The position numbers were made by a program, and so were the translations under genes. 64,000 nt of DNA, from assembly GCA_902540805.1 (NCBI GenBank), contig CACBON010000001.1, forward strand, positions 85,777 to 149,776, read 5' to 3'. Every line of letters starts with the position of its first letter. The first letter of the stretch is position 1. Source of the DNA: an uncultured Alphaproteobacteria bacterium (GTDB taxonomy: Bacteria; Pseudomonadota; Alphaproteobacteria; Methylaequorales; Methylaequoraceae). Below the pieces are notes generated by a model, which saw only the letters and a list, made by a program, of their open reading frames with translations, was not told where the DNA came from and did no database searches. Positions 6,121 to 42,505 of this stretch are shown here, piece by piece.

Positions 6121-6159
6121 GTTGAAAAAAAAATAATTTTATGTAATTTGATTTCTAAT

Positions 6160-8360: not shown

Positions 8361-8422
8361 AATCTAATTTTAATAAATTAAATTATATTTTCAAATAATT
8401 TATTTAAGCATAAAATTAAATT

Positions 8423-8626: not shown

Positions 8627-8708
8627 AATAAATAGTAACCCATTACTTAGTCTCGCTTAATCTTTATTGTAAATTATTTGTAAAGCAGTGAGTTTCTTTC
8701 AAGTGACT

Positions 8709-8993
8709 TCATTTTTGTAATTTTACGCCTTCACTTTTAAGAAGTCTTTTTTTTCTCTCTAATCCTTTTTTTCCTTTATATCCTCCCATTTTTCCGTCTT
8801 CTCTAATGACTCTGTGACATGGAATTATTTCTAACAATGGATTTTTAGCACATGCATTTGCAACAGCTCGATAAGCTTTGGGTTTCCCTATTTTCAACGC
8901 AAGTTCCTTATAAGTGATTGTTTTTCCTTTAGGAATTTTTGTTATCTCTAACCACACCATTTTTTGAAAATTAGTGCCCTTAATATTTTTCAT
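8709..8993 (-). CDS. MGMT-family protein (methylated-DNA-protein-cysteine methyltransferase DNA-binding domain only)
   Basis: 94 aa. GKTITYKELA...IPCHRVI retains the PCHR active-site motif. Overlaps the upstream gene by 4 nt. Confidence 0.8.
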   Translation of the reverse strand: MKNIKGTNFQKMVWLEITKIPKGKTITYKELALKIGKPKAYRAVANACAKNPLLEIIPCHRVIREDGKMGGYKGKKGLERKKRLLKSEGVKLQK

Positions 8994-9637
8994 CTATTTA
9001 GTTTTCTCCATTTTTTTGGATGAATAAATGTTCCCTTCCACATACCTAAATTGTTTTCTTGGGCGTATTCTTCATCAATAACATAGTCTTTGGAATAATC
9101 TCTGTAAGCAAGAGCCCATCCATTTCTTACAAGTTCTTTATTGAGGTTGGTTTGACCTACGAAACATTCAGCAACAATTCGTTTGTATCTATCTCTATCT
9201 TTGTGATTACATTTAACGGACTGATTGCCAATGAGAGAAGCTAAAAATTCTTTTGATTTGACCCCGCATTTGTAATTTTTTTCTTTCATGTTGCATAATT
9301 GCTTCATTTCAGGTGCATCAATACCGTGAAGTCTATATTTAATTTTATTAACATGGATAGTATCTCCATCAACAATTCTTATTTCTTGTTGAGTATTTAC
9401 ACTATTATTTTTTACGGCGGTAATATCTGAAACATAGCACAATGGCTCGTAACCACCAGGTTTTGAATATGCACTTCTTTTTCCACATTCTTTACCGTTA
9501 CTCATTATTGAATAAGGACATGGACATTTTCCAGGATAGTTTGCAATAGATTCTTTAATCATTTCTTCAGGAGATTTAGCTTCAGAAACACTTACAACTA
9601 AAAATAAAATAATAAAACCGTTTATGATTCTAATCAT
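8990..9637 (-). CDS. Secreted thermonuclease (SNase)-family nuclease with a Cys-rich N-terminal region
   Basis: VDGDTIHV...YRLHGIDAPE and RYKRIVAECF...GWALAY are SNase motifs. Signal peptide MIRIINGFIILFLVVSVSEA from the ATG at 9637 (track start 9682 would overlap recQ). Confidence 0.75.
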   Translation of the reverse strand: MIRIINGFIILFLVVSVSEAKSPEEMIKESIANYPGKCPCPYSIMSNGKECGKRSAYSKPGGYEPLCYVSDITAVKNNSVNTQQEIRIVDGDTIHVNKIKYRLHGIDAPEMKQLCNMKEKNYKCGVKSKEFLASLIGNQSVKCNHKDRDRYKRIVAECFVGQTNLNKELVRNGWALAYRDYSKDYVIDEEYAQENNLGMWKGTFIHPKKWRKLNR

Positions 9638-23059: not shown

Positions 23060-23085
23060 TTTCTTTATGTATAAATAGATTTATT

Positions 23086-23162
23086 GGCCCCGTAGCTCAG
23101 CTGGATAGAGCAACTGCCTTCTAAGCAGTAGGTCGTACGTTCGAATCGTACCGGGGTCGCCA
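23086..23162 (+). tRNA. tRNA-Arg (anticodon UCU)
   Basis: Cloverleaf: GGCCCCG/CGGGGTC acceptor, anticodon arm ACTGC-CTTCTAA-GCAGT, T-arm GTACG-TTCGAAT-CGTAC, encoded CCA. Confidence 0.9.
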
Positions 23163-23174
23163 GAGTGTTTAAAT

Positions 23175-23513
23175 ATGATTAAAATTTTAATTTTTATAAT
23201 TTTTTTTGTTAACAAGTCTGCAATATCAAAAGACTTCAAATTAGTGTGTTCAGAAATAAATTCTTCCCTAGATATTGGATTAAGCAGTGACTTTGCTAAA
23301 ATTGTAAATTTTAAAGATCGAACCATAGTAAATTATTCGGGTGGATTTTTTGATGATGTAGTTTTATTTGGAAGAAATGAAATTGTCTTTAATAATAAGG
23401 TATTTAATACAAGGAGCACCTTTAACATTGCCACAAACAAATGGATAACATACAAAGAGCAATATATAAAGAGTTATAACTGTAACAAAGATGAAGTTAA
23501 AAGGCGCTTTTAA
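23175..23513 (+). CDS. Small secreted two-Cys hypothetical protein
   Basis: 112 aa with a signal-like N-terminus. Followed by the hairpin AAAGGCG...CGCCTTT. Confidence 0.45.
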   Translation: MIKILIFIIFFVNKSAISKDFKLVCSEINSSLDIGLSSDFAKIVNFKDRTIVNYSGGFFDDVVLFGRNEIVFNNKVFNTRSTFNIATNKWITYKEQYIKSYNCNKDEVKRRF

Positions 23514-24423: not shown

Positions 24424-24500
<77 letters not shown>

Positions 24501-24626: not shown

Positions 24627-25952
24627 GTGAAATTCAAATTACATCTGGCTATCTTAGCATTATTATCCTATCCCCTTATTTCAACCTCTGAAGAACTTTC
24701 CGATGTTCTGAAAGATGCATATAGTTTTTATCCTGACATTAAAAAAAGTAAAACAGAACTAAAAATTTCAGAAAAAGATTTAAAAATTTCAAAAACTGAT
24801 TTTCTACCATCCCTTGATTTTTCAGCTTCACAAGGAAGGAAAATTTCGAAAAGCAATCCTGATACATCTCGAATTAATGATAGCGCAATCAACCCAACTA
24901 CTTTCGACATAGATTTATCTCAACCACTAGGTTACACAAAAGCAATAAATTTCAAGCAAGCTAAAAATAATTTGAACATTGCAAAATTAAGCTTTTACGC
25001 TACAGTTCAAGATGTTTTATTTAAAGCTAGTAGAGCTTATTATACTGTCTTAAAAGATCATTTTCTTTTAGATGTTTCAAAGAGGAATGAAGAAACTCTT
25101 GAAAAAAAACTCGAAGCTACAGAAAAAAGGTTCGAATTTAAAGACGTAACTAAAACCGACGTGTTTCAGGCCAAAGCAAGGTTAGCAGGTGCCACGTCAA
25201 AAAGAATAGAAGCTGAAAATAATTTAGAAATTTCAATTTCTGACTTTAAAACAATTGTTGGTAGAGCTCCAAATATTAGATGGCTTGATTCTAATAATGC
25301 CCAAATTGTCGACGCTAATCCAAAAGATTGGTCAAAATTTGGAGAAATTCCAAAACTTCCAAAATCTTTGGATGATTCAATAAAAACGGGTTTAGAAAAG
25401 AACCCAGATTACAGAAAATTAAAATTACAACTTATGAACTCAAAATTGGATGTAAGAAAAAATAATTTAAATTTTGCACCCGAATTATCTTTGTCTGGAT
25501 CAGTAGGAAAATCACTCGATTCCTCTAGAACAATTGAAAGAACAGATTCATACTCAGTAACTGCTAATGTTACAGTTCCATTATTTAACAAAGGGCATAA
25601 TTTATTGAATTTAGAAAAATCCAAAGATTCTGCTCTTACAGTGATTAGATCAATTGAGACAAAAAAACTTGATTTGCAATTTCAAATTAATTCGGCATGG
25701 AAGAAAATAGAAAGTTCAAAATCAAGTATTGAATCTCTTGAAGTTTCTGTTGAATCAAATTTAATGGCAGTTGAGGGTGTAACTAAAGAAGCAAGTGTTG
25801 GTACCAGAACAACGTTAGAAATTCTAGATGCACAAAAAGATCTAACAGATTCTGAATCAAATTTAGTAAACGCTCAATATCAACTTATTATTTCATCCTT
25901 CGAATTATTGAAATTATGCGGAATTCTAAATTTCGAAACAATTGAAAAATAA
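24627..25952 (+). CDS. tolC: TolC-family outer-membrane efflux/secretion protein (T1SS locus A)
   Basis: 441 aa with a GTG start and signal peptide. Two-repeat TolC architecture with typical LP(S/E)L(D/S).S and coiled-coil segments. Confidence 0.85.
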   Translation: MKFKLHLAILALLSYPLISTSEELSDVLKDAYSFYPDIKKSKTELKISEKDLKISKTDFLPSLDFSASQGRKISKSNPDTSRINDSAINPTTFDIDLSQPLGYTKAINFKQAKNNLNIAKLSFYATVQDVLFKASRAYYTVLKDHFLLDVSKRNEETLEKKLEATEKRFEFKDVTKTDVFQAKARLAGATSKRIEAENNLEISISDFKTIVGRAPNIRWLDSNNAQIVDANPKDWSKFGEIPKLPKSLDDSIKTGLEKNPDYRKLKLQLMNSKLDVRKNNLNFAPELSLSGSVGKSLDSSRTIERTDSYSVTANVTVPLFNKGHNLLNLEKSKDSALTVIRSIETKKLDLQFQINSAWKKIESSKSSIESLEVSVESNLMAVEGVTKEASVGTRTTLEILDAQKDLTDSESNLVNAQYQLIISSFELLKLCGILNFETIEK

Positions 25953-26065
25953 AATTAATTAAAGCTTGCTTAAAATTTAAAAATAAAATAATGTTAAAAT
26001 AGACTGTATCGACTTTTTAAAGTATTAACACAATTTAATTTTTCAACTTAATAAAGGAATTTATT

Positions 26066-27157
26066 ATGGCAGACTTTACTACACTGCCTCCTGACCTTAT
26101 GGATCTCGGCGATGCTGCAGGTACTGCTGCATTCGATGCGATGCAGGGCGGAGGTAGTTTTGACGAATGTATGACTGCAGCAATGGACGTTATGACGGAA
26201 GGTGGAATGCCACCTGAAATCATGGCAAACATGGCTGATACCGCTCAAGGTGCATACAACGATTTTATGGCTGAAAACCCTGGTGCAAGTGCAACAGAGG
26301 CCTTTGACGCTGTAACTGAGGTTATGGATACTCATTTAGACGGATGTCCTGACGGACCATGCACAGATTTTGGAGGTGACATGCCTCCAGTTCCGGACAT
26401 GGGACCAGGTGCTGATGCTCCCCCACCTCCGCCTCCGGGTGATTTACCAGGCGCTCCAGGTGATATGGCAGGCGGTCCCGCTATCGATCCAGCCACTGGA
26501 ATGGCGCCACAACCTCCTGAAGGCCCAGGTGAAGGTGGACCTCCTCCAGGGGATATGGCAGGACCAGACGGACCTCCTCCAGGCGACATGGCAGCAGGTG
26601 GACCAGAATTCGGACCAGCAACCCCTCCTCCTGATATGGGACCAGAGACAATGGGACCTGATGGACCTCCTCCAGGCATGGATATGGATGGAGACGGAAT
26701 GCCCCCTCCACCTCCAGGTGATATGGCAGGCGGTCCCGCTATCGATCCAGCCACTGGAATGGCGCCACAACCTCCTGAAGGCCCAGGTGAAGGTGGTTAC
26801 GATGACGGACCAGCACCAATGGACTATCCTCCAGACGGACCTCCTCCAGGTGAACCAGGAGGACCGGATCCATTATTTGGTGAAGGTGGACCAGCTGGTG
26901 GACCGCCACCACTTGACATGCCTCCAGGAGATCCAATGGGTGAACCAGGACCAATGGATGGCGGACCTGGTGCTCCAGGTGATATGCCTCCTGATGGAAT
27001 GGGCGATATGCATACTCATATGGACGATGCTGGAGCACATCATACACCAACAGACGGGCCTCCAATAGATCCTGCTGCTGGAATGGATCCAGGTGATATG
27101 CCTGCAGATATGCCTCCACCTCCTGACGATCCAAATGATGGTGGTGAGGTAGTCTAA
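26066..27157 (+). CDS. Acidic Pro/Gly/Met/Asp-rich low-complexity protein (candidate T1SS-A cargo); no signal peptide and no RTX repeats
   Basis: 363 aa with SD AAAGGA upstream. Ala/Met/Asp helical-looking N-terminal ~100 aa, then PPPGDMAG-type repeats, and a C-terminal Met/His cluster GDMHTHMDDAGAHH. Own terminator downstream. This frame is chosen over 6 overlapping ORFs because of the SD, the ATG and its consistent repeat sense. Confidence 0.7.
   Translation: MADFTTLPPDLMDLGDAAGTAAFDAMQGGGSFDECMTAAMDVMTEGGMPPEIMANMADTAQGAYNDFMAENPGASATEAFDAVTEVMDTHLDGCPDGPCTDFGGDMPPVPDMGPGADAPPPPPPGDLPGAPGDMAGGPAIDPATGMAPQPPEGPGEGGPPPGDMAGPDGPPPGDMAAGGPEFGPATPPPDMGPETMGPDGPPPGMDMDGDGMPPPPPGDMAGGPAIDPATGMAPQPPEGPGEGGYDDGPAPMDYPPDGPPPGEPGGPDPLFGEGGPAGGPPPLDMPPGDPMGEPGPMDGGPGAPGDMPPDGMGDMHTHMDDAGAHHTPTDGPPIDPAAGMDPGDMPADMPPPPDDPNDGGEVV
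26454..26538 (+). repeat. 85-bp exact direct repeat, copy 1 (copy 2 at 26712..26796)
   Basis: CTCCAGGTGATATGGCAGGCGGTCCCGCTATCGATCCAGCCACTGGAATGGCGCCACAACCTCCTGAAGGCCCAGGTGAAGGTGG occurs twice, 258 bp (86 codons) apart and in frame. It encodes PGDMAGGPAIDPATGMAPQPPEGPGEGG. Confidence 0.9.
26712..26796 (+). repeat. 85-bp exact direct repeat, copy 2
   Basis: Identical to 26454..26538 by direct reading. Confidence 0.9.
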
Positions 27158-27181
27158 AGCTATACTTCTTTAAGTAAAAAA

Positions 27182-27214
27182 CCCTCTCACAGTTTCTGAG
27201 AGGGTTTTTTTTTT
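27182..27214 (+). terminator. Rho-independent terminator between the cargo gene and the ABC gene
   Basis: 8-bp GC-rich stem CCCTCTCA / TGAGAGGG with a 7-nt loop, followed by T10. Confidence 0.8.
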
Positions 27215-27246
27215 GATTAAATCAAAAATTAATATATTATGTTCAC

Positions 27247-29418
27247 ATGGAAGCCATGCGTGGATCTCAAAAATCAATTATTCTAGTTGCAAGACAACTT
27301 GGGGTTCATATTGGTCCAAACGATATTCCAGAAAGATTTCAAATTGAAGATAGAGAGCTAAGAATTTCTGAAATGTGTGACTTAGCTCATTCATTTGATT
27401 TAAAAGCAAAAGCAACCAAAATTAGCGAAAAGGAATTAGTAAAGCTCTTATCTAAAAAACAACAAATCTTAAGACTTAAAAATGGCAGATACATAATAGC
27501 GTTAAGAGTTATTCAAGGTGAAAAAGATGACGATAAGTCAGTTTTATGCCTTGATACTGGTGTAACAAGTCCTAAACCTCAACAAATTAATTTAAAAGAA
27601 TTAAAAAAAGGGTGGGATGGAGAAGTTATTCTATTAAAAGCTAAACTTAAAAAATTTGAAGAGGATAGCGAATTAAAAATTGGATGGTTAATTGGCGAAT
27701 CATTTAGAAATAAATCTGTTATGATTCAGGTTATAATAGTAGCTTTGATTTTGAACATTTTTGCAGTTATACCTGCTGTTTTCATGATGTTGGTGTTGGA
27801 TAAAGTTGTGAACTATGAAGCTTATTCAACTTTATATGTCATAACTTCAGGTGTTATTGTTGCGTATGTATTTAATGGAATACTTGGGTATTTAAAATCA
27901 TATCTTCTTGATTTTTTCTCACAAAAAGTTGAAGCAAAACTTTCAGTTAAAGTTTTTGAAAAATTAATTGCTTTACCAATGCAAAGGTTTCACAAAGAAT
28001 CCGCCACTTTTTTGAGATTCACAGGACAAATATCTCAGATAAAAAGCCTTTTGACTCAAAAAGTTTTCTCAACAGCACTAGACTCAATCAGTTTACTTGT
28101 TTTTGTTCCCATTCTATTTTTTTATAGTCCTTTACTATTTATTGTTGTGTTTTCATTCAGTATATTAGGAGCTTTAGCATCAATGTTTTACTCAAAAAAA
28201 CAAAGAGATTCTCTTGCTGGTTTAAGTAAGGCTGAATCAAAGAGACAAGAATTTATTTCTGTTGCTGTAAACGGAATCGAGAATGTGAAGGGACTTGCTC
28301 TTGAACCTAATTTGAAAGATCAGTGGAGAGATTTGGAAGCAAATTATATTATTGCAAATGAAGAAATGCAAAAAAAGTCAGCAGTTTTAAACAACATTTC
28401 ATCAACCATAAATCAACTTATGACTGCAATGGTTATTTTTGTCGGAGTGCATCTTGTATTTTCTGGATCTCTTTCAGCCGGAATTTTAGTAGGTTTTAAT
28501 ATGCTTGCTGGCAGAGTTTCAAAGCCAATAATTGATCTAGTTACGCTAAAAACAGAAATAACAAAATTAGTTCAATCCCTTCAGATCATATCAGGAATAG
28601 TGGATGCTAACACCGAAACAACTGTTAGAGGCCAAAAACCTCAACTCATGGGACAAGTTAGTTTTAAAAATGTTGAGTTTGGGTACGACGATAACACAAA
28701 AGTATTAAATGATATTGACATTGAAATTAACCCAAGACAGATAATTGGTATAACTGGTAAAAGTGGTTGTGGGAAAAGTACCATTGCAAAACTAATTCAA
28801 GGTTTATATAGACCGCAAGCTGGCATCGTAGCCCTTGATAATATAGATCTACGTCTATTGGACCTGAGTCACGTAAGATCACAGGTTTCATTAGTTGGAA
28901 CAGATAGTTATTTTTTTCCTGGAACAATAAGAGAAACAATAGCAAGTGCAATGCCAAATTCTTCAATGGACAGAATAACTTGGGCTGCAAAAAAAGTTTT
29001 CGCACATGAAGAAATTGAGTCTTATCCTGATGGATATGAAACATTCTTAGAAGAAAATGCTACAAATCTTGCAACTGGCTTAAGACAAAAACTAGCAATT
29101 GCCAGAGCACTTATTAGAAACCCTCGTATCATGATACTTGATGACGCTTTCACAGGTTTTGACGTTGACAGTGAAATAAAATTATACGATGCACTATCAG
29201 ATATTGCTCTTGGCAGAACGATAATTATCGTATCAAACAGGGTTTGGCACCTTCGACTTTGTAATAAAATCTTTGTACTTGAAAAGGGGAAAATATCTCA
29301 ACAGGGTTCTTTTGAAGAATTAAGACAAATTTCAGGTTATTTTGGTCAAACGTATAATAAGCAAATGTCTATTTTGGGAGTTGATAACAAAATTAAATCT
29401 ATAAAGAGGGCCGGGTAA
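27247..29418 (+). CDS. HlyB-type T1SS ABC protein with an N-terminal C39-like (non-catalytic) domain and degenerate ATPase motifs
   Basis: 723 aa: a ~160-aa N-terminal cytoplasmic domain ending KGWDGEVILLK, six-TM region, and an NBD with Walker A GKSGCGKST. Signature is LATGL (not LSGGQ), Walker B is ILDDA (Asp for the catalytic Glu), H-loop position is SNR, and the Q-loop is VGTD. Confidence 0.85.
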   Translation: MEAMRGSQKSIILVARQLGVHIGPNDIPERFQIEDRELRISEMCDLAHSFDLKAKATKISEKELVKLLSKKQQILRLKNGRYIIALRVIQGEKDDDKSVLCLDTGVTSPKPQQINLKELKKGWDGEVILLKAKLKKFEEDSELKIGWLIGESFRNKSVMIQVIIVALILNIFAVIPAVFMMLVLDKVVNYEAYSTLYVITSGVIVAYVFNGILGYLKSYLLDFFSQKVEAKLSVKVFEKLIALPMQRFHKESATFLRFTGQISQIKSLLTQKVFSTALDSISLLVFVPILFFYSPLLFIVVFSFSILGALASMFYSKKQRDSLAGLSKAESKRQEFISVAVNGIENVKGLALEPNLKDQWRDLEANYIIANEEMQKKSAVLNNISSTINQLMTAMVIFVGVHLVFSGSLSAGILVGFNMLAGRVSKPIIDLVTLKTEITKLVQSLQIISGIVDANTETTVRGQKPQLMGQVSFKNVEFGYDDNTKVLNDIDIEINPRQIIGITGKSGCGKSTIAKLIQGLYRPQAGIVALDNIDLRLLDLSHVRSQVSLVGTDSYFFPGTIRETIASAMPNSSMDRITWAAKKVFAHEEIESYPDGYETFLEENATNLATGLRQKLAIARALIRNPRIMILDDAFTGFDVDSEIKLYDALSDIALGRTIIIVSNRVWHLRLCNKIFVLEKGKISQQGSFEELRQISGYFGQTYNKQMSILGVDNKIKSIKRAG

Positions 29419-29424: not shown

Positions 29425-31149
29425 ATGGCTGAAAAAAAAAATATACAACCGGCTGTTAGAAATTTAGCTGCTGGTGATGTGCTTTTTAGAGAAGGTGAAG
29501 TTGGTGACTATGCCTATCAAATAGTAAAAGGAAAAATAGAGGTATGTAAATTCAACGGTGACGAATACGTCACTTTATCAATACTTGAAAAAGGCGCGTT
29601 GTTTGGAGAAATGGCATTAATTGACAAACAACCAAGAAGTGCAATGGCTAGAGCAACTGTTGAGACAACGGTAAAAGAAATTGATCAAAATGCTTTATTA
29701 GGCTATCTCAAAAACTCTCCTCAAACAGCTTTTAATATGATGCAGCAACTTGCAAGCTACGCTAGAAATGCAAACGAAAAATTGTCTGTGGATGCTTTTG
29801 AATCTGGAAATGAAAATGAAAATAACAAAGATCAAGAAGAAGTTTTAACTGAGGAGGAAAAAGAAAATAGATCAAAGAAAAAAATGATGAGTGAATTGTT
29901 GGATGAGTTTGATGACGATATTGATAGAATTAAAACAAAACAGGTACCTCGTTCAGTAAAAATGTCAGTTTATTCATTTGGTTTCCTAATTTTATTTTTA
30001 ATTACTTGGGGCACTATTTCCGAAATTGATACTACAATTTCTGCTTCTGGTAAAATTACCACCGTTGTTCCAAATGTAGAGGTGCAATCAAACTATAATT
30101 CTGTTGTCAAAGAAATACTTGTAAAAAAAGGCGAGAGTGTCAATCAAGGAGACCCACTCGTAACTTTCGATGCTACACTTCAAAGAGCGGATAAAATGAA
30201 ACTTGATTATCAGCTTTCAGTTGTAAATTCAAAAATTGACAGACTAAAAAAGCAATCATTGTTAAGGAATAATGTTTCGGTTGCAAACCCAAATGACGAA
30301 AGACAAAGCAGAATCTTCAAAGATAAAAAAGACCAATATTTAGCAAAGATTGCTTCATTAGATCAACAAATAGGTTCTACAGAAGACGATTTAAAGTTTA
30401 TCAAGGAACAACTTGATATACAAAAGCAGCTAGAAGATTCAAAGTTGGAGTTATTTGAACTTGATCTTGTAGCAGAGTCACAAGTTTTAGCTGAAAAAAA
30501 CAAAAGGTTATCTTTAGAAAAAGAATTCACAAAAACTAGCAATAAACTAAGCGAATTAAAATCTAATAGAAAAGAATATAATAGCCAATTTTTTGGAGGA
30601 ATAAACGATGAGCTTGTTGCATTAGAGGATCAAAGAATGTCGCTACAAGAAGATGTAAAAAAACTTGAAAGACAACAAACTGATGTAGTGGTGAGAGCGC
30701 CGTCTGACGGTATGATTCTAGACCTTCATTCTTTATATCCTGGAGCAGTAATAACACAAGGTAAAAGTGTTGTTACATTGGTACCAACAGGTGTGGAATT
30801 ATTAACTGTTTTTGATGTTGATCCCTCTGATATTAGCAAACTAATTCCGGATACGTCTGTTAAAATTCAACTTAATGCCCTTCCAGCACAAAAACACGGT
30901 GAGTTAAAAGGAAAGCTTATTTATGTTTCTGCTGACACAATTGATAAAGACGTCGATGGAAAACCAGGAAATTTTTATAGGGCTAGGGCTCAAATAACAG
31001 AAAATGAGTTAAAAGATATTCCTCCAGGATTTAATTTAATGCCAGGAATGAAAGTTTCAGGAAAGTTTAGAGTTGGGCAAAGAAGATTAATTACGTATTT
31101 TATTTATCCACTTATAAGAACTCTTGGTAATAGTTTTGCAGAACCATGA
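29425..31149 (+). CDS. HlyD-family T1SS membrane-fusion protein with an N-terminal cyclic-nucleotide-binding domain
   Basis: 574 aa. CNB domain with phosphate-binding cassette FGEMALIDKQPRSAMARA, an acidic linker, one TM (VYSFGFLILFLITWGTI), then HlyD lipoyl/coiled-coil/beta-barrel regions (GKITTVVPN...GDPLVTFD ... VRAPSDGMI). Confidence 0.85.
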   Translation: MAEKKNIQPAVRNLAAGDVLFREGEVGDYAYQIVKGKIEVCKFNGDEYVTLSILEKGALFGEMALIDKQPRSAMARATVETTVKEIDQNALLGYLKNSPQTAFNMMQQLASYARNANEKLSVDAFESGNENENNKDQEEVLTEEEKENRSKKKMMSELLDEFDDDIDRIKTKQVPRSVKMSVYSFGFLILFLITWGTISEIDTTISASGKITTVVPNVEVQSNYNSVVKEILVKKGESVNQGDPLVTFDATLQRADKMKLDYQLSVVNSKIDRLKKQSLLRNNVSVANPNDERQSRIFKDKKDQYLAKIASLDQQIGSTEDDLKFIKEQLDIQKQLEDSKLELFELDLVAESQVLAEKNKRLSLEKEFTKTSNKLSELKSNRKEYNSQFFGGINDELVALEDQRMSLQEDVKKLERQQTDVVVRAPSDGMILDLHSLYPGAVITQGKSVVTLVPTGVELLTVFDVDPSDISKLIPDTSVKIQLNALPAQKHGELKGKLIYVSADTIDKDVDGKPGNFYRARAQITENELKDIPPGFNLMPGMKVSGKFRVGQRRLITYFIYPLIRTLGNSFAEP

Positions 31150-33521
31150 TCAAATTAAAGCTAAGTTTTAGACTAATTGTTACTATTGCTTCATTAGTAA
31201 TGGCTATTCTTTTTGGTTTGATTCGTATAGCTGATCCTGAAATAGTAGAAGTTCTAAGACTAAAGTATTTTGATGTTCTTCAAAAAAAATTCCCAAGGTC
31301 TACGGATGGTCAAACTTATTCCGTAATAGTAGATATTGATGAAAAATCTCTCAGAGAAATTGGTCAATGGCCGTGGCCAAGAACTGTACTTGCTGATCTT
31401 TTTAAAAAATCTAAGGAATCAGGTATGCTTGTTTTAGGCCTAGATGTTCTATTTGCAGAAAAAGACAGAACTTCACCTGATTTAATTTCTCAAGATTTAG
31501 AAAAAAGAAACCCAACTATCGCCAAGTTATTAAGTGAACTTCCTTCTAATGAGTTTTTAGCCACAGAAGCTATGAATGACTTTCCTGTAGTAATCGGTCA
31601 CTCTGGTTTAGATGTTGAAGGTGATGCAAACAGAAATGATATAAACGATTCGTCTGTAAAAGTTTTTGTTGGTAAAGGTAAAAATCCGAAGGAATGGTTG
31701 ATATCTTATCCTGGATTGCTAGCTAATGTGACAGAGTTTGAAAAAGCTGCTTCTGGCTCCGGAACAGTGTCAGTTGCACAGGAACCTGATGGAATTATTA
31801 GAAGAGTACCCTTAATATCAAATGTTGCAGGTGAAATCAGACCAACTCTTGGGCTCGATATGATACGGGTTGCGTTTCAAGGAAATAGTATTGCCACAAG
31901 GACAGGTTTGACGGGAATTCAAGAAATAATAATTCAAACCAAGGCCATTGGAAATGCTGCCATTCCGACTGATGAGAATGGTAGAGTGTGGATTTATTAC
32001 GGTGATTCAGATGCTGGTAAAGTTAAAGAAGATACATCAAGATATTATGTAAGTGCAGTTGATATAATTAAAGGAAGAGTTGGGAAAGATAGATTACAAG
32101 GAAAACTTGGAATACTTGGCACATCGGCCACTGGATTAAAGGATATTAGACCCACGCCAGTCGATGAAAGAATGCCAGGTGTTGAAATTCATGCAAACCT
32201 TATTGATACCGTCATTTCAGCAATTCTTTATTATACATCTACAAAAAATTCTGAAAAAGTTTTTAAAGACGCATTAAAAAAAGGCTTAAGTGAAGAAGAA
32301 GCAATAATTGAAAAAAATAAAGTTAAAATTTCAGGATCTCCTTTTTTGAAATCCGGTGCAAATATGAAATTTTATGAATCACTATTTACAATTTTTCTAG
32401 CATTATTTATCACAATATCTGCATTAAAGTTTGGTCCAATTGTTAATATTTCATTACTTGTAACTATCATAAGTTCTGCTTTTTATATAAGTGTAAGGTT
32501 ATTTCTTGACCATAAAACTTTATTTGACCCAACCTTTGCAGGTGTAACAACTTTTGTAATTTATTTTGGTAACACCTTTGCAAACTACTTGCGAGATGCC
32601 AATGAGAAGAAACAGATAAGAGGTGCATTTTCACAATATCTATCCCCTGCTTTAGTAGAGCAATTAGCTGAAGATCCTGATAAATTAGTTTTGGGTGGAG
32701 AAACAAAAAAAATGACATTTCTTTTTTGTGATGTAAGAGGATTTACAACTATTTCAGAAGCTTTTAAGTCTGATCCTCAAGGCTTAACAAAACTTATTAA
32801 TAGGTTTTTAACTCCTCTTACTAATGAAATCATAAATAAAAACGGAACAATCGATAAATATATGGGAGATTGTATCATGGCTTTTTGGAATGCACCTATT
32901 GACGTCGAAAATCATGAGCAAGTTTCATGTGAAGCAGCATTAAGTATGCATAAAGCACTTAAAGAACTTAACGATATCAGAGAGCAAGAAGCAAAGTCAG
33001 ATAATAAAGATTTTTTAGAGTTAAAAATTGGAATTGGACTAAATACAGGAGGTTGTGTTGTTGGAAATATGGGGTCAGATCAAAGGTTTGATTATTCTGT
33101 GTTAGGAGACGCTGTCAATTTAGCTTCACGTCTTGAAGGTCAATCAAAAGGTTATGGCGTTAAAACAGTTATTGGACAAGAAACAAACGATGCTATTAAA
33201 GATACTTTTGCTACACTCCAACTTGATATGTTAGCAGTTAAAGGTAAAAAAGAAGCTGTTTCAATTTTTTGTTTACTTGGTGACCCCAGTTTTAAAAAAA
33301 GCCAGGATTTCAAAACCCTTGAAATAAAGCACAAAAACATATTAAATAACTATTTCAATCAAAATTGGGGAGAAGCTATGGAGGAAATGACTCAGGCAAA
33401 AACACTTTGTAAAAACTTGATGAAAGATTATTATGAAATGATGACAGATAGAATTAATGAATATAAAAAGTCTCCTCCGCCAAAAGATTGGGATGGTGTT
33501 TTTGTTGCAACCTCAAAATAA
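31146..33521 (+). CDS. CHASE2-sensor class III adenylate/guanylate cyclase (adenylate-type specificity residues)
   Basis: 791 aa. N-terminal TM, CHASE2 hallmark DIDEKSLREIGQWPWPR, three TMs, then a cyclase domain FLFCDVRGFTTISE...DKYMGDCIMAFWNAP...RFDYSVLGDAVNLASRLEG. ATGA overlap with the upstream gene. Confidence 0.9.
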   Translation: MIKLKLSFRLIVTIASLVMAILFGLIRIADPEIVEVLRLKYFDVLQKKFPRSTDGQTYSVIVDIDEKSLREIGQWPWPRTVLADLFKKSKESGMLVLGLDVLFAEKDRTSPDLISQDLEKRNPTIAKLLSELPSNEFLATEAMNDFPVVIGHSGLDVEGDANRNDINDSSVKVFVGKGKNPKEWLISYPGLLANVTEFEKAASGSGTVSVAQEPDGIIRRVPLISNVAGEIRPTLGLDMIRVAFQGNSIATRTGLTGIQEIIIQTKAIGNAAIPTDENGRVWIYYGDSDAGKVKEDTSRYYVSAVDIIKGRVGKDRLQGKLGILGTSATGLKDIRPTPVDERMPGVEIHANLIDTVISAILYYTSTKNSEKVFKDALKKGLSEEEAIIEKNKVKISGSPFLKSGANMKFYESLFTIFLALFITISALKFGPIVNISLLVTIISSAFYISVRLFLDHKTLFDPTFAGVTTFVIYFGNTFANYLRDANEKKQIRGAFSQYLSPALVEQLAEDPDKLVLGGETKKMTFLFCDVRGFTTISEAFKSDPQGLTKLINRFLTPLTNEIINKNGTIDKYMGDCIMAFWNAPIDVENHEQVSCEAALSMHKALKELNDIREQEAKSDNKDFLELKIGIGLNTGGCVVGNMGSDQRFDYSVLGDAVNLASRLEGQSKGYGVKTVIGQETNDAIKDTFATLQLDMLAVKGKKEAVSIFCLLGDPSFKKSQDFKTLEIKHKNILNNYFNQNWGEAMEEMTQAKTLCKNLMKDYYEMMTDRINEYKKSPPPKDWDGVFVATSK

Positions 33522-33534: not shown

Positions 33535-33975
33535 ATGAGTTTAAAAAAGATTAGAGTTCTTCCAGATCAATATATCGTTCGAGAGGGTGAAGTTGGGGAA
33601 ACTGCTTTCTTAGTTATCTCAGGTGGATTAATCGCAGAAATTAAAGGAAAAAAAATAGGTAAAATTGAAACAGGTGAAATCTTTGGAGAACTTTCCTTAA
33701 TTCTTGGCGAAAACAGAACTGCAAGCGTAAAAGCAGTTGTCCCAAGTGAAGTTGTTGAAATAAAAAGAAAGGCATTAGAGGCTATTTTGTTATCGTCAAA
33801 TATAGATTTGCATAAAATTATTAACGAAATGTCAAAGGAATTAGGAAAGTCTGACGACCAAAAACTTCCTATTACCAAAGCTGATCTTTTAAAACTTACC
33901 AAAGACTCTCCTAACGTAATAAGAGCTCTAGCATTACAGATTCATTATAGATTATCTCAAAGGATATTCTCTTGA
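33535..33975 (+). CDS. Stand-alone cyclic-nucleotide-binding domain protein (no HTH)
   Basis: 146 aa with PBC FGELSLILGENRTASVKA. Too short for a CRP-type DNA-binding domain. Confidence 0.8.
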   Translation: MSLKKIRVLPDQYIVREGEVGETAFLVISGGLIAEIKGKKIGKIETGEIFGELSLILGENRTASVKAVVPSEVVEIKRKALEAILLSSNIDLHKIINEMSKELGKSDDQKLPITKADLLKLTKDSPNVIRALALQIHYRLSQRIFS

Positions 33976-34439
33976 AAGAAGTTAGTCACGGAAAAACAAC
34001 AAAAGTTTTAATGCTAGAAGGAGAAACACTTTTTAATCAAGGTGATAAGGGTAATAAAGCTTACATGATAGTTCAAGGAGCTCTTGATGTAGTAGTTGAT
34101 GGAAAAAAAGTCGGTTCTATGAGAGATGGAGAGGTTTTTGGTGAAATGGCTTTAATTTTAAAACAAAACAGAAGCGCAACAATTACATCAAGTCAATCCA
34201 CAGAGTTGATATCCATTAGTAAAGAAAATCTTGATGAGCTTATTAATTCTGGTTCAAAAGCTGCTCAGAGGATAATTAGAGATTTATGTGAAGAACTCGC
34301 CAAAAGGACTGAATTTCAAAAAGTACTTTATTCACATAAGGAAATAGATGAGATAATAGCGTCAGAGAATCAAATAATACAAAAAATCACAAAACAAATT
34401 CTTTATAGATTAGAGCGGTCAACAAGTCATGTTGAATAA
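33972..34439 (+). CDS. Stand-alone cyclic-nucleotide-binding domain protein (no HTH)
   Basis: 155 aa with PBC FGEMALILKQNRSATITS. TTG start overlapping the upstream TGA (TTGA). Confidence 0.75.
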   Translation: MKEVSHGKTTKVLMLEGETLFNQGDKGNKAYMIVQGALDVVVDGKKVGSMRDGEVFGEMALILKQNRSATITSSQSTELISISKENLDELINSGSKAAQRIIRDLCEELAKRTEFQKVLYSHKEIDEIIASENQIIQKITKQILYRLERSTSHVE

Positions 34440-34476: not shown

Positions 34477-36174
34477 ATGAAATATTCAGATTATATTCAT
34501 GAATCAGAGATTAATCATAAATCTTTAAGTTATAATCTTCTCACTCCGAAGGCAACCAAAGGAAAACCCCTAAAGCCTCAAAAAATTAAAGTATCTCCTG
34601 CCAAGGCATTGACTCTGTTAGCCCCATACACAATTTCCAGAGTTATGGAGCAAATCAAAGCAGTTGTTCCACTTGCAGCATATTTATTTCTATTTCAACT
34701 TTTAATTCTAAGACAACCAATCTCTTCAGCGACCACAATTTGTCTAGGATTGATTGCAGTAATAATAGGCCTAGCAATTTTTATGGAGGGTCTTAAAACC
34801 GGTTTAATGCCATTTGGCAATGTAATTGGAGATACATTACCAAAAAAAGCACCTATGGTTCTTGTTTTAATTATTATTGGAATACTAGGAGTTGGGGTAA
34901 CTTATGCGGAACCAGCTATCGGAGCACTCAAAGCTTTTGGTTCGTCAATAAATCCACAGGACGCACCATATCTCTATGAGATACTCAACAATAGAAGTGA
35001 AACCTTAGTTGTAATGGTCGGTGCTGGCGTTGGACTAGCTGCTATCATTGGAACAATAAGGTTTGTAAAAGGTTGGTCTCTTAAACCTATGATTTATGCG
35101 GCTCTTGCACCAACAATAATTCTTACTGCATATGTATGGAGTAACCCTGATTTAAGAACTATTCTTGGATTAGCTTGGGATTGCGGAGCTGTTACTACTG
35201 GACCAGTTACTGTACCTCTTGTGCTATCACTAGGTATTGGAATTGCAGCATCAGCTGGCAAAGGAGATTCATCTCTTTCTGGTTTTGGCGTTGTTACAAT
35301 GGCTTCATTATTTCCAATTATCGCTGTTCTGATTCTTGCCATACACGTTTCTCAAACAATCTCAGTTGAGGAAATAATTGCTTCGACTGATATGGCTTCA
35401 GATATGGCCATAGGAGAGGTTTCTAAGTGGTCACAAACCCCGTTTGTTGAGATTATTGGAGGAGTCAGAGCAATACTTCCACTTGTAATATTTTTAATGA
35501 TTGTGCTTTTTGTAATCCTTAAATCTAAACTTCCTAATAATATGATAACAACTTATGGGCTAACTTTGTCCATTGTTGGAATGTGTGTCTTCAATATAGG
35601 TCTTACATATGGTTTAGGAGCAATAGGTGGCCAAGCTGGAACTAATCTTCCTGCTGCCTTTATGGAAGTTCCTGTAAGTGAAGTATCACCAATTTATAAC
35701 GAATTATTAGGTTTAACTATAGTAATCCTTTTCGCTTGGCTTTTAGGATTTGGCGCAACTCTTGCTGAGCCTGCACTTAATGCTCTTGGTTTAACAGTTC
35801 AAGAGCTCACAAATGGTGCCTTCAAAAAGTCAATGTTAATGTATAGTGTTGCCGGGGGCGTTGCATTTGGGATAGCCTTAGGTGTAGGAAAAATTGTCTT
35901 TGCTTTTGACTTAGCAACAGTTTTAATACCACTTTATCTTCTTGCAATTGTTTTAACTTACTTTTCAACTGAAGAATTTGTTAATGTCGCCTGGGATAGC
36001 GCTGGAGTCACAACCGGTCCTGTAACTGTACCACTTGTTTTGGCAATGGGTCTTGGTTTAGGAAATGCTGTATCCGCCACTGAGGGTTTTGGCATTCTAT
36101 CTATGGCAAGTATTTGTCCAATTCTTGCTGTACTCTTAATGGGACTATATATACAATTTAAACAAAAAAAATAA
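34477..36174 (+). CDS. Polytopic membrane protein with two DUF1538 domains
   Basis: 565 aa, about 12+ TMs. Duplicated signature AWDCGAVTTGPVTVPLVLSLGIG / AWDSAGVTTGPVTVPLVLAMGLG. Confidence 0.8.
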   Translation: MKYSDYIHESEINHKSLSYNLLTPKATKGKPLKPQKIKVSPAKALTLLAPYTISRVMEQIKAVVPLAAYLFLFQLLILRQPISSATTICLGLIAVIIGLAIFMEGLKTGLMPFGNVIGDTLPKKAPMVLVLIIIGILGVGVTYAEPAIGALKAFGSSINPQDAPYLYEILNNRSETLVVMVGAGVGLAAIIGTIRFVKGWSLKPMIYAALAPTIILTAYVWSNPDLRTILGLAWDCGAVTTGPVTVPLVLSLGIGIAASAGKGDSSLSGFGVVTMASLFPIIAVLILAIHVSQTISVEEIIASTDMASDMAIGEVSKWSQTPFVEIIGGVRAILPLVIFLMIVLFVILKSKLPNNMITTYGLTLSIVGMCVFNIGLTYGLGAIGGQAGTNLPAAFMEVPVSEVSPIYNELLGLTIVILFAWLLGFGATLAEPALNALGLTVQELTNGAFKKSMLMYSVAGGVAFGIALGVGKIVFAFDLATVLIPLYLLAIVLTYFSTEEFVNVAWDSAGVTTGPVTVPLVLAMGLGLGNAVSATEGFGILSMASICPILAVLLMGLYIQFKQKK

Positions 36175-36849: not shown

Positions 36850-38121
36850 TTATCTTTCGGATAATGCAAAGCTAGCACCAGTTATAAAAGGAGTTAGGAA
36901 ATAATCCATAAAACTTCTTTTACCAGTTATAATTCCAACCATAACTGGAACACCAGACAAAAGTCTATATTCCTCGTTTTTTCGTGCAAAAGAGTTTTCA
37001 GAAGTTTCCACCTTAACTAAATAAAAACCCTCTTCATCTTTATTAGAAATTCTGTCAGCACCTACAAAAACAACCTTCCCTTTTATTGATCTAAACCTAG
37101 AGCCTTCAGGAGTATTTAGTCTAATTTTTGCTTCAAGGTTTTTTTTTACGTAACCAATTTCTGATAAAGGTAATTTTGCCTCAATGATTAGTTTTTCGTT
37201 TTCAGGTACAATTTCAACAACAGTTACGCCAGGAGCGACTATAGCTCCTTTAGAATTTACTGACACAAGTTTTATTGTTCCAGACACAGGGCTTTTTAAA
37301 ACAGTTCTATTTAAACTATCTGAATATTTCTGAATTCTTTTATTAAGTTCTTCTTTTTCTTTTCGGTACTGTGACAACTCGATATTTAAATCTTCTATGT
37401 AATTGTTTTGCACTTTTTCTAAGTCATTCTTGCTCAAATCAATAATAGATTGTTGTTCGTCGATACTCCCTTCAACCTCCTGCCTTTCTCTTAAAATTTC
37501 TAAATGCTTTAACCTATTTGTTGCTTCAACTTCTAACAATTTTTGACTAATATCTTCTTGTTCTTTAACGATTTTTAATCTTTTTTTTAAATTTTTGAGA
37601 TTTTTATTAGCTTTATCAATACTTGCTTTCTTGGACTTTATTTCAGAGTTGATTGCTTTTCTTCTACTTTGAAAAAGTTCATTTTCAGATTTTACTAATT
37701 CCTTGTCAAATAAATTATTTATATTTTCAGGAATTTCTATTGAATTATCAGAATTTATTTCAGAATTAACTCTAAGTATTGACAGATCAATTGATTTAAG
37801 TCTTGAATTAATTTCCTCAAATTCAGAGCTTGCTTTTTCTTTTGATAAAACTACTAAAGGCTGATTTATTTCAACTTTTTCACCTTCACTAATTAGTATT
37901 TCTTCAACTATTCCACCCTCTAAATGTTGCACATACTTCATTCTTCCTTGGGGTATTATTTTTCCATCAGCTAAGCTTAATACCTCAATAATTTTTAAAT
38001 TCACTAGTAGCAAAAAAATAAGTGAAAAAAGAATTAATGATACTTTTAGTCTTTTACTAATAACGTTTTTTGGTTTTTCATCGTTTTTAAATAAATTCCA
38101 TTTTACCCATTTCTCTGTCAT
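36850..38121 (-). CDS. HlyD-family T1SS membrane-fusion protein (locus B)
   Basis: 423 aa. N-terminal TM, GKIIPQGRMKYVQHLEGGIVEEILISEGEKVEINQPLV, a long coiled coil, and a C-terminal barrel (SPVSGTI...). Confidence 0.9.
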   Translation of the reverse strand: MTEKWVKWNLFKNDEKPKNVISKRLKVSLILFSLIFLLLVNLKIIEVLSLADGKIIPQGRMKYVQHLEGGIVEEILISEGEKVEINQPLVVLSKEKASSEFEEINSRLKSIDLSILRVNSEINSDNSIEIPENINNLFDKELVKSENELFQSRRKAINSEIKSKKASIDKANKNLKNLKKRLKIVKEQEDISQKLLEVEATNRLKHLEILRERQEVEGSIDEQQSIIDLSKNDLEKVQNNYIEDLNIELSQYRKEKEELNKRIQKYSDSLNRTVLKSPVSGTIKLVSVNSKGAIVAPGVTVVEIVPENEKLIIEAKLPLSEIGYVKKNLEAKIRLNTPEGSRFRSIKGKVVFVGADRISNKDEEGFYLVKVETSENSFARKNEEYRLLSGVPVMVGIITGKRSFMDYFLTPFITGASFALSER

Positions 38122-38125
38122 TTTT

Positions 38126-39715
38126 TCACCCTAAATTAGTTTGTTTATCACTTAATTTAATAATTTCAGAATCTTCTGAAAAACAAATTACGGTTTTTCC
38201 AGCTCTTTTTAATGAGGCTATCAATTTGAGTATCATATTTTTACCTAATTTATCTAGATATAATAACGGATCATCAAAAATATAAACTTGATAAGTTTTT
38301 GAAATCGACCGTGCAATATGTATTTTTTTTAAAATCCCTTTTGAATAATTTTTATTTATAGAATCAGTTATAGTTAAATCTGATTTTTTTAACTCTTTAT
38401 CTAATCCAACATTTTGAAGCAGTCTACTTACCTCTTGTTCATTCAGATCAGGGTTGGATATTAAAATATTATTTAAAATTGATGAATTTAACACTTCAAC
38501 ATCTTCTGGTATATAAGCTACTTGATTCTTATACCATTGCAATGATAGTTTCTCCAAATTAGTTTCATCTAATAAAATATCACCAGATTCTGGATTAATT
38601 AGTCCCATAAGTAATTTTGCAATTGTGGTCTTTCCCGAGCCATTCGATCCGCTAATAACTGAAATTTCTGATGAATTAAAATTAGCAGAGAAATTTTTAA
38701 TTATATACTTATTATCATTATCAAAAGAGTAGTTTACATTTTTAAGTTTATAATTCCCTATAATTTTACTTAGTTGCATACCCTCAACTCTATTTTTAGA
38801 GTTTTTGAAAAAATCTTGGCAATCATTAAGATACATATTTGTTCTCTCAATAATAGAATATGAATTTTGTGCTGATGAAATTGAACCCAATGCTCGAGTA
38901 GCAAATATATTAAATCCTATGAGGCTTCCAATAGTAAGATTTCCGTTTACGACAAAGATACTCCCAAATCCAATAGTAATGATTGATGATAATAAAACAA
39001 AAAAACTCGTTGTGGAGATTTGTTGAGCATCAAAATTTGCGGTTGAAGAGTCAATTTTTAATTTTTTATTTAAGTAATTTTCTAGATAATATCCAGAATA
39101 TTTAAATGCTAAAGTAGATTTTAAAAGCTCTTGATTAGTTCCAATCTCTTTAATTATTAATTTATCATTCTTAGATAAATTTAATTTTTCCAGGTTTAGA
39201 TTTTTATTTTTTATTAATCTTTGTTGCAATAACAAGAAAATAATAACAAGAATTAAAAAAATTGTTGCCAATAATAGGTCCAGAAAAAAAAGAATAATAA
39301 TAATCAAAGTTGCAAAAATTGAGTCGAGAAGATTTGACTGAACTTTGGGTGATAAGAATTGAAAAAAATTATTATTGAAATCAATTATTTCAACAAAATT
39401 TCTTTTTGAGGTTTTATTTTCTCTCTCAAAAAATGTTTTGATTAGGTCTAATTTAAAAAATTTTATTGGATTTATGAGAAGTTCACATAAGATTTTACTC
39501 CTTATATTCCTAAATATATACTCGAATACTGCAACTAAAAGAGCACCTGATAATAGAAAAAACAATGTTCCCTGAAGGCCGAATGCAATATATCTATTAA
39601 AAATGTGAATAATAAAGATTGGGCTTAATAAACCCATTATAGTGATAAAAAAAGTCAATAAAAGAATAGTATTTAGGGATTTACTTTCTTTTAATATGTG
39701 AAACCAAAACTTCAT
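38126..39715 (-). CDS. T1SS-type ABC protein (TMD+NBD, no N-terminal peptidase domain) with degenerate ATPase motifs
   Basis: 529 aa. Walker A GSNGSGKTT is intact. Signature is YSKGI, Walker B is IFDDP, the Q-loop is IPED, and the H-loop position is FSED. Confidence 0.8.
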   Translation of the reverse strand: MKFWFHILKESKSLNTILLLTFFITIMGLLSPIFIIHIFNRYIAFGLQGTLFFLLSGALLVAVFEYIFRNIRSKILCELLINPIKFFKLDLIKTFFERENKTSKRNFVEIIDFNNNFFQFLSPKVQSNLLDSIFATLIIIILFFLDLLLATIFLILVIIFLLLQQRLIKNKNLNLEKLNLSKNDKLIIKEIGTNQELLKSTLAFKYSGYYLENYLNKKLKIDSSTANFDAQQISTTSFFVLLSSIITIGFGSIFVVNGNLTIGSLIGFNIFATRALGSISSAQNSYSIIERTNMYLNDCQDFFKNSKNRVEGMQLSKIIGNYKLKNVNYSFDNDNKYIIKNFSANFNSSEISVISGSNGSGKTTIAKLLMGLINPESGDILLDETNLEKLSLQWYKNQVAYIPEDVEVLNSSILNNILISNPDLNEQEVSRLLQNVGLDKELKKSDLTITDSINKNYSKGILKKIHIARSISKTYQVYIFDDPLLYLDKLGKNMILKLIASLKRAGKTVICFSEDSEIIKLSDKQTNLG

Positions 39716-39767
39716 AATGTTATTTTATAATATCACTCTCTTACCTTCAAAATAACCATATAACAAC

Positions 39768-42434: not shown

Positions 42435-42505
42435 ACCACTGTTAATGCTATGTTTACGACATAAAAGGAAATTTATTTAGTTGAAAGCTCTATTATTCAG
42501 GAACT

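Follow-up and report, generated by a model that had tools for sequence, protein, structure and literature searches.

A lysine- and arginine-free acidic protein encoded in a putative cyclic-nucleotide-regulated type I secretion locus of an uncultured alphaproteobacterium

A 64,000-nucleotide stretch of contig CACBON010000001.1 (positions 85,777 to 149,776, forward strand) from an uncultured alphaproteobacterium, here called the window, carries at positions 26066-27157 a gene for a protein of 363 amino acids (aa) that contains neither lysine nor arginine. It is a real, conserved protein-coding gene, and by sequence its product seems to belong to an undescribed family, which would be a new family of cargo proteins within a known mechanism of secretion. 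The acidic protein is probably the dedicated substrate of the type I secretion system (T1SS) that surrounds it, a system that would be regulated by cyclic nucleotide monophosphates (cNMP), and would consist of three modules and act as a polyanion outside the cell. A T1SS substrate had already been proposed in the first-pass annotation of this DNA. The idea is plausible, and the position beside the transporter is conserved in related loci. The genes concerned are listed here.

24627-25952, + strand: TolC-family outer-membrane channel (Pfam OEP, E=2.8e-56; TIGR01844 type_I_sec_TolC, E=3.4e-66)
26066-27157, + strand: cargo candidate gene (open reading frame, ORF; 363-aa, Lys/Arg-free, hyper-acidic Pro/Gly/Asp/Met protein)
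27247-29418, + strand: HlyB-type ATP-binding cassette (ABC) exporter with C39-like N-domain (TIGR01846, E=3.3e-146; Pfam Peptidase_C39, E=1.1e-5)
29425-31149, + strand: HlyD-type membrane fusion protein (MFP) with N-terminal cNMP-binding domain (PF00027, E=1.2e-19, residues 12-97; TIGR01843, E=1.2e-64)
31146-33521, + strand: CHASE2-sensor adenylate/guanylate cyclase (Pfam CHASE2, E=2e-46; Guanylate_cyc, E=9.7e-20)
33972-34439, + strand: stand-alone cNMP-binding protein
~33535-33975: second stand-alone cNMP-binding protein, ~146 aa

The complete gene order reads Sel1-repeat protein (- strand), tRNA, TolC, acidic protein, terminator, ABC, MFP, cyclase, two cNMP-binding proteins and DUF1538, which confirms the earlier placement of the gene between tolC and a terminator ahead of the ABC gene. 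The same order was found in the related loci L001-L004, L006-L013 and L016. This synteny, which includes the TolC and CHASE2 cyclase genes, extends to lineages in which the flanking proteins share only 60-74% identity with those of the window, and both small cNMP-binding genes are also present in L008, L010 and L013. A more distant case is L020 (55% GC; 4020-11242). Here two tandem acidic proteins of 478 and 454 aa, with 3-5 copies of the helix-hairpin module described below, are encoded directly upstream of a 721-aa ABC protein and a cNMP-binding HlyD, with no adjacent TolC or cyclase; the 454-aa protein has no Lys and no Arg. This linkage to one transporter type across very different genomes is the strongest argument for a cargo role. 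Genes for the ABC, MFP and outer-membrane components thus adjoin the acidic gene (L005 is the exception), and neither hydropathy nor N-terminal composition pointed to a Sec- or Tat-like N-terminal signal or a transmembrane segment in its product.

The best match of the ABC N-domain in the PDB is the C39-like domain of HlyB (3ZUA). Residues 1-43 contain no Cys, and a Tyr occupies the His position (GRYII versus GRHFI in HlyB), so that the domain is predicted to be non-proteolytic and catalytically dead. Without these catalytic residues, Cys and His, a double-glycine-leader mechanism is ruled out; a candidate leader ending in QGG (residues 27-29 of the 363-aa protein) was rejected on this ground. 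In the MFP, the phosphate-binding cassette (FGE-x-AL...PR[ST]A) of the cNMP domain is intact (FGEMALIDKQPRSA, MFP residues 60-73). The CHASE2 cyclase is the likely source of the nucleotide signal. For the HetC exporter it was shown that a cNMP domain is required for function (PMC10986499), which provides a precedent for cNMP-gated export. In marine metagenomes, fusions of a cNMP domain with HlyD occur often (593 homologues at E<=1e-20), and literature searches found no paper describing them.

The composition of the acidic protein is P 24.0%, G 19.6%, D 14.0%, A 11.0% and M 9.6%. It contains 87 Pro and 35 Met, and 67 Asp and Glu residues are accompanied by five His and no Lys or Arg, with a pI of ~4. 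In four neighbouring genes Lys makes up 9.1% and Arg 3.9% of residues, from which ~47 basic residues would be expected, and neighbouring genes have only 2.0% Met. The coordinates and composition reported in the first-pass annotation were confirmed, and the repeat units and the C-terminal string it quoted are present in the translation. GC content is 54% over the kilobase of this gene versus ~29% for the window. GC at the first, second and third codon positions is 0.78, 0.60 and 0.29, the last value agreeing with the genome of the host and lying close to the 0.18-0.21 of the neighbours. The excess at the first two positions together with the neighbour-like third position indicates that amino-acid choice drives the composition, and that the gene is native and not foreign DNA. 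A ribosome-binding site (AAAGGAA) lies 7 nt upstream of the ATG.

No match for the acidic protein or for two divergent homologues was obtained with Pfam, NCBIfam, PHROGs or PADLOC profiles, and tblastn against plasmids found none for the protein either. The absence of RTX repeats noted before was borne out: PF00353 gave no match (Pfam, E<=0.01) and the protein has no GGxGxD motif (0-3 in homologues), while two large proteins of a second T1SS locus in the window, serving as positive control, do match this profile. The same holds for the absence of a signal peptide. Neither a signal-peptide-like nor a transmembrane-like segment was found; over 19-residue windows the Kyte-Doolittle mean reaches at most 0.44, and the protein begins with an acidic stretch (MADFTTLPPDLMDLGD). 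Literature searches for the protein or the operon type yielded no description. A search of 5.8 billion proteins retrieved 47 homologues of 199-400 aa, and the only annotation among them is one "hypothetical protein [Rickettsiales bacterium]". They share a conserved N-terminal region of ~110 aa followed by a variable Pro/Gly/Asp/Met middle part, the motifs DPLFGEGGPAGGPPPGD and (G/A)(M/D)MDGDGMPPPPP, a Met/His block (MGDMHTHMDDAGAHH or variants) and a conserved end (PPPPDDPNDGGEVV, ...DDPTDDVV, ...DDDTSGMA). Lys and Arg are both absent in 31 of 32 intact members, the remaining one having a single Arg, and likewise in the intact genes recovered from related loci.

The other frames and the opposite strand of this GC-rich, stop-poor region also contain long ORFs. 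However, it is very improbable that the stretch is no protein gene or is read here in the wrong frame or strand. Conservation across loci is seen in this frame only, all intact homologues keep it and their length changes are in-frame, and base composition differs between codon positions. Codon-based comparison with close relatives gave a ratio of nonsynonymous to synonymous substitution rates (dN/dS) of ~0.04-0.07 over the first 100 codons, far below 1, indicating that this frame is translated and that the N-terminal head is under purifying selection. Where homologues appear in another frame, they are frameshifted copies out of long-read assemblies.

Several database members turn Trp/Gln/Arg-rich midway and represent such frameshifted versions of the gene. 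In many copies from long-read or metagenome-assembled genomes (P0023, P0025, P0028, P0029, P0031, P0038, P0039, P0042, P0043, P0045 and P0047; L003, L010 and L011) the frameshifts fall in the repeat region, and the gene calls are split or truncated by them. Assembly or polishing error in the GC-rich repeats is probably the cause.

The N-terminal part and the middle part of the protein differ in predicted structure. The following features were located in them.

26090-26341, + strand: four-helix bundle head (residues 9-92), predicted by AlphaFold2, with two helix-hairpin modules and a Met/Phe-rich core
26681-26698, + strand: DMDGDG motif (residues 206-211) within GMDMDGDGMPPPPP, of DxDxDG type, a possible Ca2+ loop
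26867-26902, + strand: conserved linear motif DPLFGEGGPAGG in the predicted disordered tail

AlphaFold2, run with a 32-sequence alignment, predicted helices at residues 9-27, 32-45, 50-70 and 76-92 with a predicted local distance difference test score (pLDDT) of 87-96, and coil beyond residue ~100 (pLDDT 36-72). The former statement that the protein has almost no hydrophobic core is thus wrong for the head, a confidently predicted four-helix bundle whose core consists of Met, Phe, Leu and Val. The head is made of two copies of a hairpin module, A-x-x-A-F/Y-x-x-A-L/M-x-x-G-x-S/P-P-x-E.... Foldseek comparison of the model with the PDB gave nothing significant (best E=1.8), and a PDB sequence search with the head profile returned only a designed helical repeat (E=0.03). 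The head is the only part of the protein that finds remote relatives. An exhaustive hidden Markov model search of 1.84 billion representatives with the head profile recovered only 76 proteins. In P0211, P0213, P0249, P0250 and P0242, 2-5 module copies are spaced by Gly/Pro/Asp repeats, and most multi-module remote relatives are nearly or wholly free of Lys and Arg. Within the tail, the DxDxDG motif occurs in 26 of 32 intact family members, and Ca2+ binding is possible judging by this motif. Residues D268, P269, L270, F271 and G272 are nearly invariant across homologues. The family shows no conserved Cys motif: certain alleles have CPPC, and the acidic protein has C-x5-C.

The C-terminal ~60 aa are conserved across the family and contain two elements.

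26999-27043, + strand: Met/His cluster MGDMHTHMDDAGAHH, residues 312-326, proposed amphipathic signal element
27095-27154, + strand: extreme C-terminus DMPADMPPPPDDPNDGGEVV, acidic and terminating in hydrophobic residues (VV), conserved family-wide

Every subfamily has an M-x-x-M-x-x-x-M-D block that begins 49-52 residues before the C-terminus; in the acidic protein, whose Met/His cluster spans positions -52 to -41, Met is found at i, i+3 and i+7, at positions -52 to -45. In the subfamily of P0015, P0030 and P0032 there is no His and the block reads MDEASSYMDQSS; in others His is sparse. Alignment of the last 75 residues places MGDMHTHMDD over DALGAAMDAA, DALSSALDGA, NALGEALDNV and AALGEAIDSV of distant members, whose His-free consensus over the cluster is (D/N)ALGxA(L/M/I)D. 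The conserved feature of the block is therefore a hydrophobic-x3-hydrophobic-Asp element, Leu/Ile/Met-x3-Leu/Met/Ile-Asp in distant relatives, and not His or Met as such. Some repeat units and C-terminal motifs of P0003, P0005 and P0044 have Val or Ile in place of Met. The essential amphipathic helix of HlyA comprises residues 975-987 of 1024, 38-50 residues from the end (PMC8870123), and the C-termini of RTX substrates are enriched in Asp, with Arg and Lys being the most depleted residues (PMC8861453). Since the cluster aligns with a His-free motif at the same distance from the C-terminus, the Met/His block is more likely to be part of a secretion signal than a copper site.

The transcription signals around the gene were analyzed as well, and three elements were assigned.

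27176-27216, + strand: intrinsic terminator (hairpin 27176-27210) with a 14-bp stem and a 7-nt loop, followed by a T-run
27213-27240, + strand: promoter-like TTGATT-N16-TATTAT ahead of the ABC gene
26000-26028, + strand: putative promoter-like element upstream of the acidic gene, TAGACT, 17 nt, TATTAA

The terminator that had been placed at 27182-27214 is present and strong, its coordinates being a few bases off. The hairpin was found in all eight related T1SS loci examined; the loop varies and the stem changes are compensatory (CCCTCTCA/TGAGAGGG, CCCCCTTAG/CTAAGGGGG, CCCTCTGTA/TACAGGGGG and CCCTCTAAA/TTTAGAGGG). The promoter-like sequence that follows (TTGATTAAATCAAAAATTAATATATTAT) is conserved in L001, L004, L006 and L007. 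On the upstream side a block GACTGTATCGACTT...AAAGTATTAACACAA is conserved in eight of nine aligned regions. The TAGACT-17-TATTAA element matches the consensus at 8 of 12 positions, below the scan threshold, and might at best be read as a weak promoter candidate. With this promoter-like element in front and a strong terminator behind, the acidic gene looks like an independent transcription unit. The layout had been likened to the hlyA-hlyB attenuation arrangement, a reasonable analogy. The order of gene, terminator and transporter is indeed conserved, but the conserved element past the terminator suggests that the transporter genes may have their own promoter instead of depending on read-through.

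The middle part of the gene is repetitive. Many short PPPGDM-type repeats are present, and besides these one long exact repeat was found.

26454-26538, + strand: 85-bp exact repeat, copy 1, encoding the truncated cassette PGDMAGGPAIDPATGMAPQPPEGPGEGG
26712-26796, + strand: 85-bp exact repeat, copy 2, running on into the full cassette ...YDDGPAPMDYPP

The two copies are spaced by 258 bp (86 codons) and in frame, as reported before. Recent repeat expansion, which had been deduced from them, holds in part. Repeat number does vary among strains, intact genes having 3-17 PPPG units and encoding 279-411 aa, but the 85-bp repeat is not a simple tandem expansion. The segment between the copies resembles the L002 allele, and a cassette that is present twice with an L002-like segment between seems better described as cassette shuffling among alleles. 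The window and L009 share the cassette GPAIDPATGMAPQPPEGPGEGGYDDGPAPMDYPP with ~94% nucleotide identity, although their flanking genes are 67-73% identical. This suggests a recent exchange of the cassette between lineages. Within a cassette of ~96 nt (AIDPATGMAPQPPEGPGEGGYDDGPAPMDYPP; window 26712-26830, L009 10526-10649) all differences between the window and L009 are synonymous. An RNA structure behind this nucleotide conservation was considered and rejected (z-scores +0.26, +1.14 and +0.47, no signal). A cassette mobile beyond this gene was likewise rejected: an exact-pattern metagenome scan gave two hits, both in homologous genes with the same operon context.

Head alleles fall into at least two old classes with 52% aa identity (window 26066-26365 versus L004, L006 and L007). 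Between L006 and the window, the head has a dS of 2.4 and a dN of 0.37, compared to a dS of 0.35 for the ABC gene and 0.41 for TolC. The last 60 codons have a dS of 0.58, about the flank rate. The far higher dS of the head indicates that recombination exchanges old head alleles while leaving the C-terminus with the transporter. In L008 two tandem paralogues (8616-9770 and 10001-10957) have different heads and identical C-termini, and one of them carries a long array of PPPGDMGPGPDGPMG units.

For the role as T1SS cargo we propose the following sequence of events. A folded four-helix head of ~90 aa, present as divergent alleles, would be the conserved functional part of the protein. It would be followed by a disordered, polyanionic Pro/Gly/Asp/Met spacer of ~220 aa without Lys and Arg, in which cassettes are gained, lost and shuffled. 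The last ~55 aa would constitute the secretion signal, composed of the hydrophobic-x3-hydrophobic-Asp element (MGDMHTHMDD), ~45-52 residues from the C-terminus, and the acidic, Pro-rich Val-Val end. The protein would be secreted by being threaded, C-terminus first, through the ABC/MFP/TolC conduit. Export would probably be gated by a cyclic nucleotide: the CHASE2 cyclase would make cAMP or cGMP, and the cNMP domain of the MFP, placed in the cytoplasm, would sense it. Once outside, free or associated with the surface, the protein would form a highly hydrated polyanion that binds divalent cations (Ca2+, Mg2+).

Some observations weigh against this proposal. The classical partners of ABC exporters with a C39-like domain are RTX substrates, and the acidic protein has no RTX repeats. 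The L005 homologue (10001-10840), from a single amplified genome, does not lie beside a T1SS, although its transporter may be encoded elsewhere in the genome. AlphaFold predicts no helix at residues 312-323, within the putative signal element, and cation binding is deduced from composition and the DxDxDG motif only. Pro is depleted in the last 20 residues of known RTX substrates, which end in [FLI][VAI] (PMC8861453); here the C-terminus is Pro-rich and ends in VV. The neighbours of the L005 gene are a methyltransferase-like gene on one side and a CBS-domain gene and an ABC-2 transporter on the other.

Three other roles were weighed against that of a secreted cargo. The first-pass annotation had compared the Met/His cluster and the D-M repeats to copper motifs of the CopA/PcoC/CusF type, by which the protein would be an extracellular or periplasmic ligand of Cu(I)/Cu(II) or another trace metal. 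PcoE and SilE are known disordered, Met/His-rich metal sponges, and a local Met/His/Asp cluster in a disordered region and an overall Met enrichment (9.6% versus 2.0% in neighbours) are features that the acidic protein shares with these proteins. The block MGDMHTHMDDAGAHH is kept in most subfamilies, and some alleles have a CPPC motif. Nevertheless the comparison found no support, and a copper or trace-metal ligand is quite unlikely: no Pfam or NCBIfam profile for CopC, CusF, multicopper oxidases or PcoE/SilE matches, a Sec signal peptide is lacking, and the operon has no copper-homeostasis genes. His is not conserved in the family, being missing in P0015, P0030 and P0032, the ligand positions are Leu, Ile or Ala in relatives, Val or Ile takes the place of Met in part of the repeats and C-terminal motifs, and the Cys motifs are not conserved. 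Alternatively, the protein could be retained at the surface as a polyanionic brush in the manner of LapA or MpIBP. In this case the head would fold before translocation ends and plug TolC, the acidic tail would form a hydrated, protease-resistant coat, and head alleles would diversify under phage or grazer pressure. The operon does combine a C39-like-domain ABC with a dedicated TolC gene, like the LapB and LapE components of LapA-type systems, and regulation by a nucleotide second messenger is a further parallel. A stably predicted head followed directly by a flexible linker would suit a plug, and swapping of old head alleles in near-identical backgrounds (dS 2.4 versus 0.35-0.41) is typical of exposed proteins. 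A head held in the periplasm would not be exposed, however, and fits diversifying head alleles poorly. There is no sign that folding of the head precedes export, neither a LapG-like protease nor a LapD-like receptor turned up in the scanned window ORFs, and RTX repeats and adhesion domains are lacking, so that retention as a brush seems doubtful to us.

The mosaic of a conserved C-terminus and divergent heads, and the tandem paralogues with different heads and the same C-terminus, would also be expected of a polymorphic, bacteriocin-like effector, whose C-terminal signal delivers interchangeable N-terminal "warhead" alleles against competitors or grazers. Export of bacteriocins by T1SS is well known. 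We give this explanation little credence. An immunity-gene candidate that varies with the head allele was not seen, the neighbours being 91-99% identical whichever allele is present. The small acidic bundle has no basic or strongly hydrophobic surfaces, unlike known pore-formers and nucleases, and neither a toxin-domain match nor a significant structural match was obtained.

As a putative secreted cargo, the acidic protein can be compared to substrates of known systems. Like HlyA and other RTX proteins it is encoded next to TolC, HlyD and an HlyB-type ABC protein with an inactive C39-like domain, with a terminator between cargo and transporter genes. It is likewise acidic, Gly/Asp-rich, largely disordered and without N-terminal signal peptide, and its conserved C-terminal ~55 aa have a hydrophobic-periodic element at the position of the amphipathic helix of HlyA. 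In contrast to these proteins it lacks GGxGxDxUx nonapeptides and Lys and Arg, has 24% Pro and a Pro-rich C-terminus, and comprises only 363 aa; moreover, the MFP bears a cNMP-binding domain. HasA is also a small acidic non-RTX protein whose presumed C-terminal signal ends in an acidic residue followed by hydrophobic ones. HasA-type ABC proteins have no N-terminal appendix, unlike the ABC protein here, and HasA has a compact alpha/beta fold instead of a helical head and a long disordered tail. Neither Foldseek nor the sequence search against the PDB detected similarity between the two. With the LapA/MpIBP systems the locus has in common the C39-like-domain ABC, a TolC-like gene of its own, a folded domain at the N-terminus with a flexible linker behind it, and nucleotide second-messenger control. 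The acidic protein differs by being ~10- to 40-fold smaller and by lacking RTX or adhesive repeats and LapG/LapD partners (window ORFs scanned). Furthermore, the cNMP would be sensed here by the MFP, whereas LapD senses cyclic di-GMP. A cNMP domain on or beside a T1SS-like exporter is also found in HetC of Nostoc (PMC10986499) and in the cNMP proteins of NHLP bacteriocin export (TIGR03896). Here the domain is on the MFP and not on the ABC protein, the peptidase domain of the ABC protein is predicted to be dead, and the cargo lacks a processable double-glycine leader.

A second T1SS locus is present in the window at 36850-50248 on the - strand.

47942-50248, - strand: GAF-GAF-PAS adenylate/guanylate cyclase
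45837-47171, - strand: TolC
42506-45781, - strand: FecR-domain and RTX protein, 1091 aa
39768-42434, - strand: FecR-domain and RTX protein, 888 aa
38126-39715, - strand: ABC protein without N-terminal appendix
36850-38121, - strand: HlyD

A nucleotide cyclase thus accompanies each of the two T1SS loci of the window. The two large FecR/RTX proteins, with a GC content of 51-54% in their genes, contain PPIGPDGEPL and GPGGPGDF repeat arrays and carry the sequences AAAREAFETALAAGLSPEEAMAEAA and AAREAFDTALSAGASPEQAMAEAA (an AAREAFxxALxxGxSPExAM look-alike), which resemble one hairpin module of the head. Homology between the head and these proteins was not significant (BLASTP E>0.5; hmmsearch 1-2 bits) and was rejected. 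Around the first locus, the cNMP-binding genes are followed by a DUF1538 membrane protein and a P-II-like protein (34477-36174 and downstream), which are syntenic in L008-L013. Upstream, tRNA genes at 23086-23159 (+) and 24427-24500 (-) flank the Sel1-repeat gene, and an 81-aa ORF (23081-23326, -) that overlaps the first tRNA is probably spurious.

If the acidic protein is exported as proposed, T1SS with a C39-like domain would handle a non-RTX, Pro-rich cargo without basic residues, and the hydrophobic-x3-hydrophobic-Asp element ~45-50 residues from the end would be a new signal motif that crosses lineages. The system would also be a natural example of cyclic-nucleotide-gated secretion via a membrane fusion protein. 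Allele swapping and cassette shuffling point to an interaction with the outside world. The host seems to be an oligotrophic marine alphaproteobacterium with a streamlined genome, where each retained gene is costly, and a discarded protein with 35 Met and 87 Pro must pay for itself. The absence of Lys and Arg and the predominance of residues without side-chain nitrogen would fit a protein that is lost in nitrogen-poor water. Without Lys and Arg there are no tryptic peptides, and trypsin-based proteomics is blind to this protein, which may explain its missing annotation. A wider and clearly speculative reading, which we think rather improbable, is that it is the founding member of a class of Lys/Arg-free polyanionic T1SS cargo, built from hairpin modules, exported by cNMP-gated HlyB/HlyD systems and present in abundant streamlined marine bacteria. 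In that event standard proteomics and metaproteomics would have missed such proteins systematically. They could be a significant source of organic ligands that bind cations or trace metals, or a surface polyelectrolyte coat, and their output would be controlled by an extracellular signal via CHASE2.

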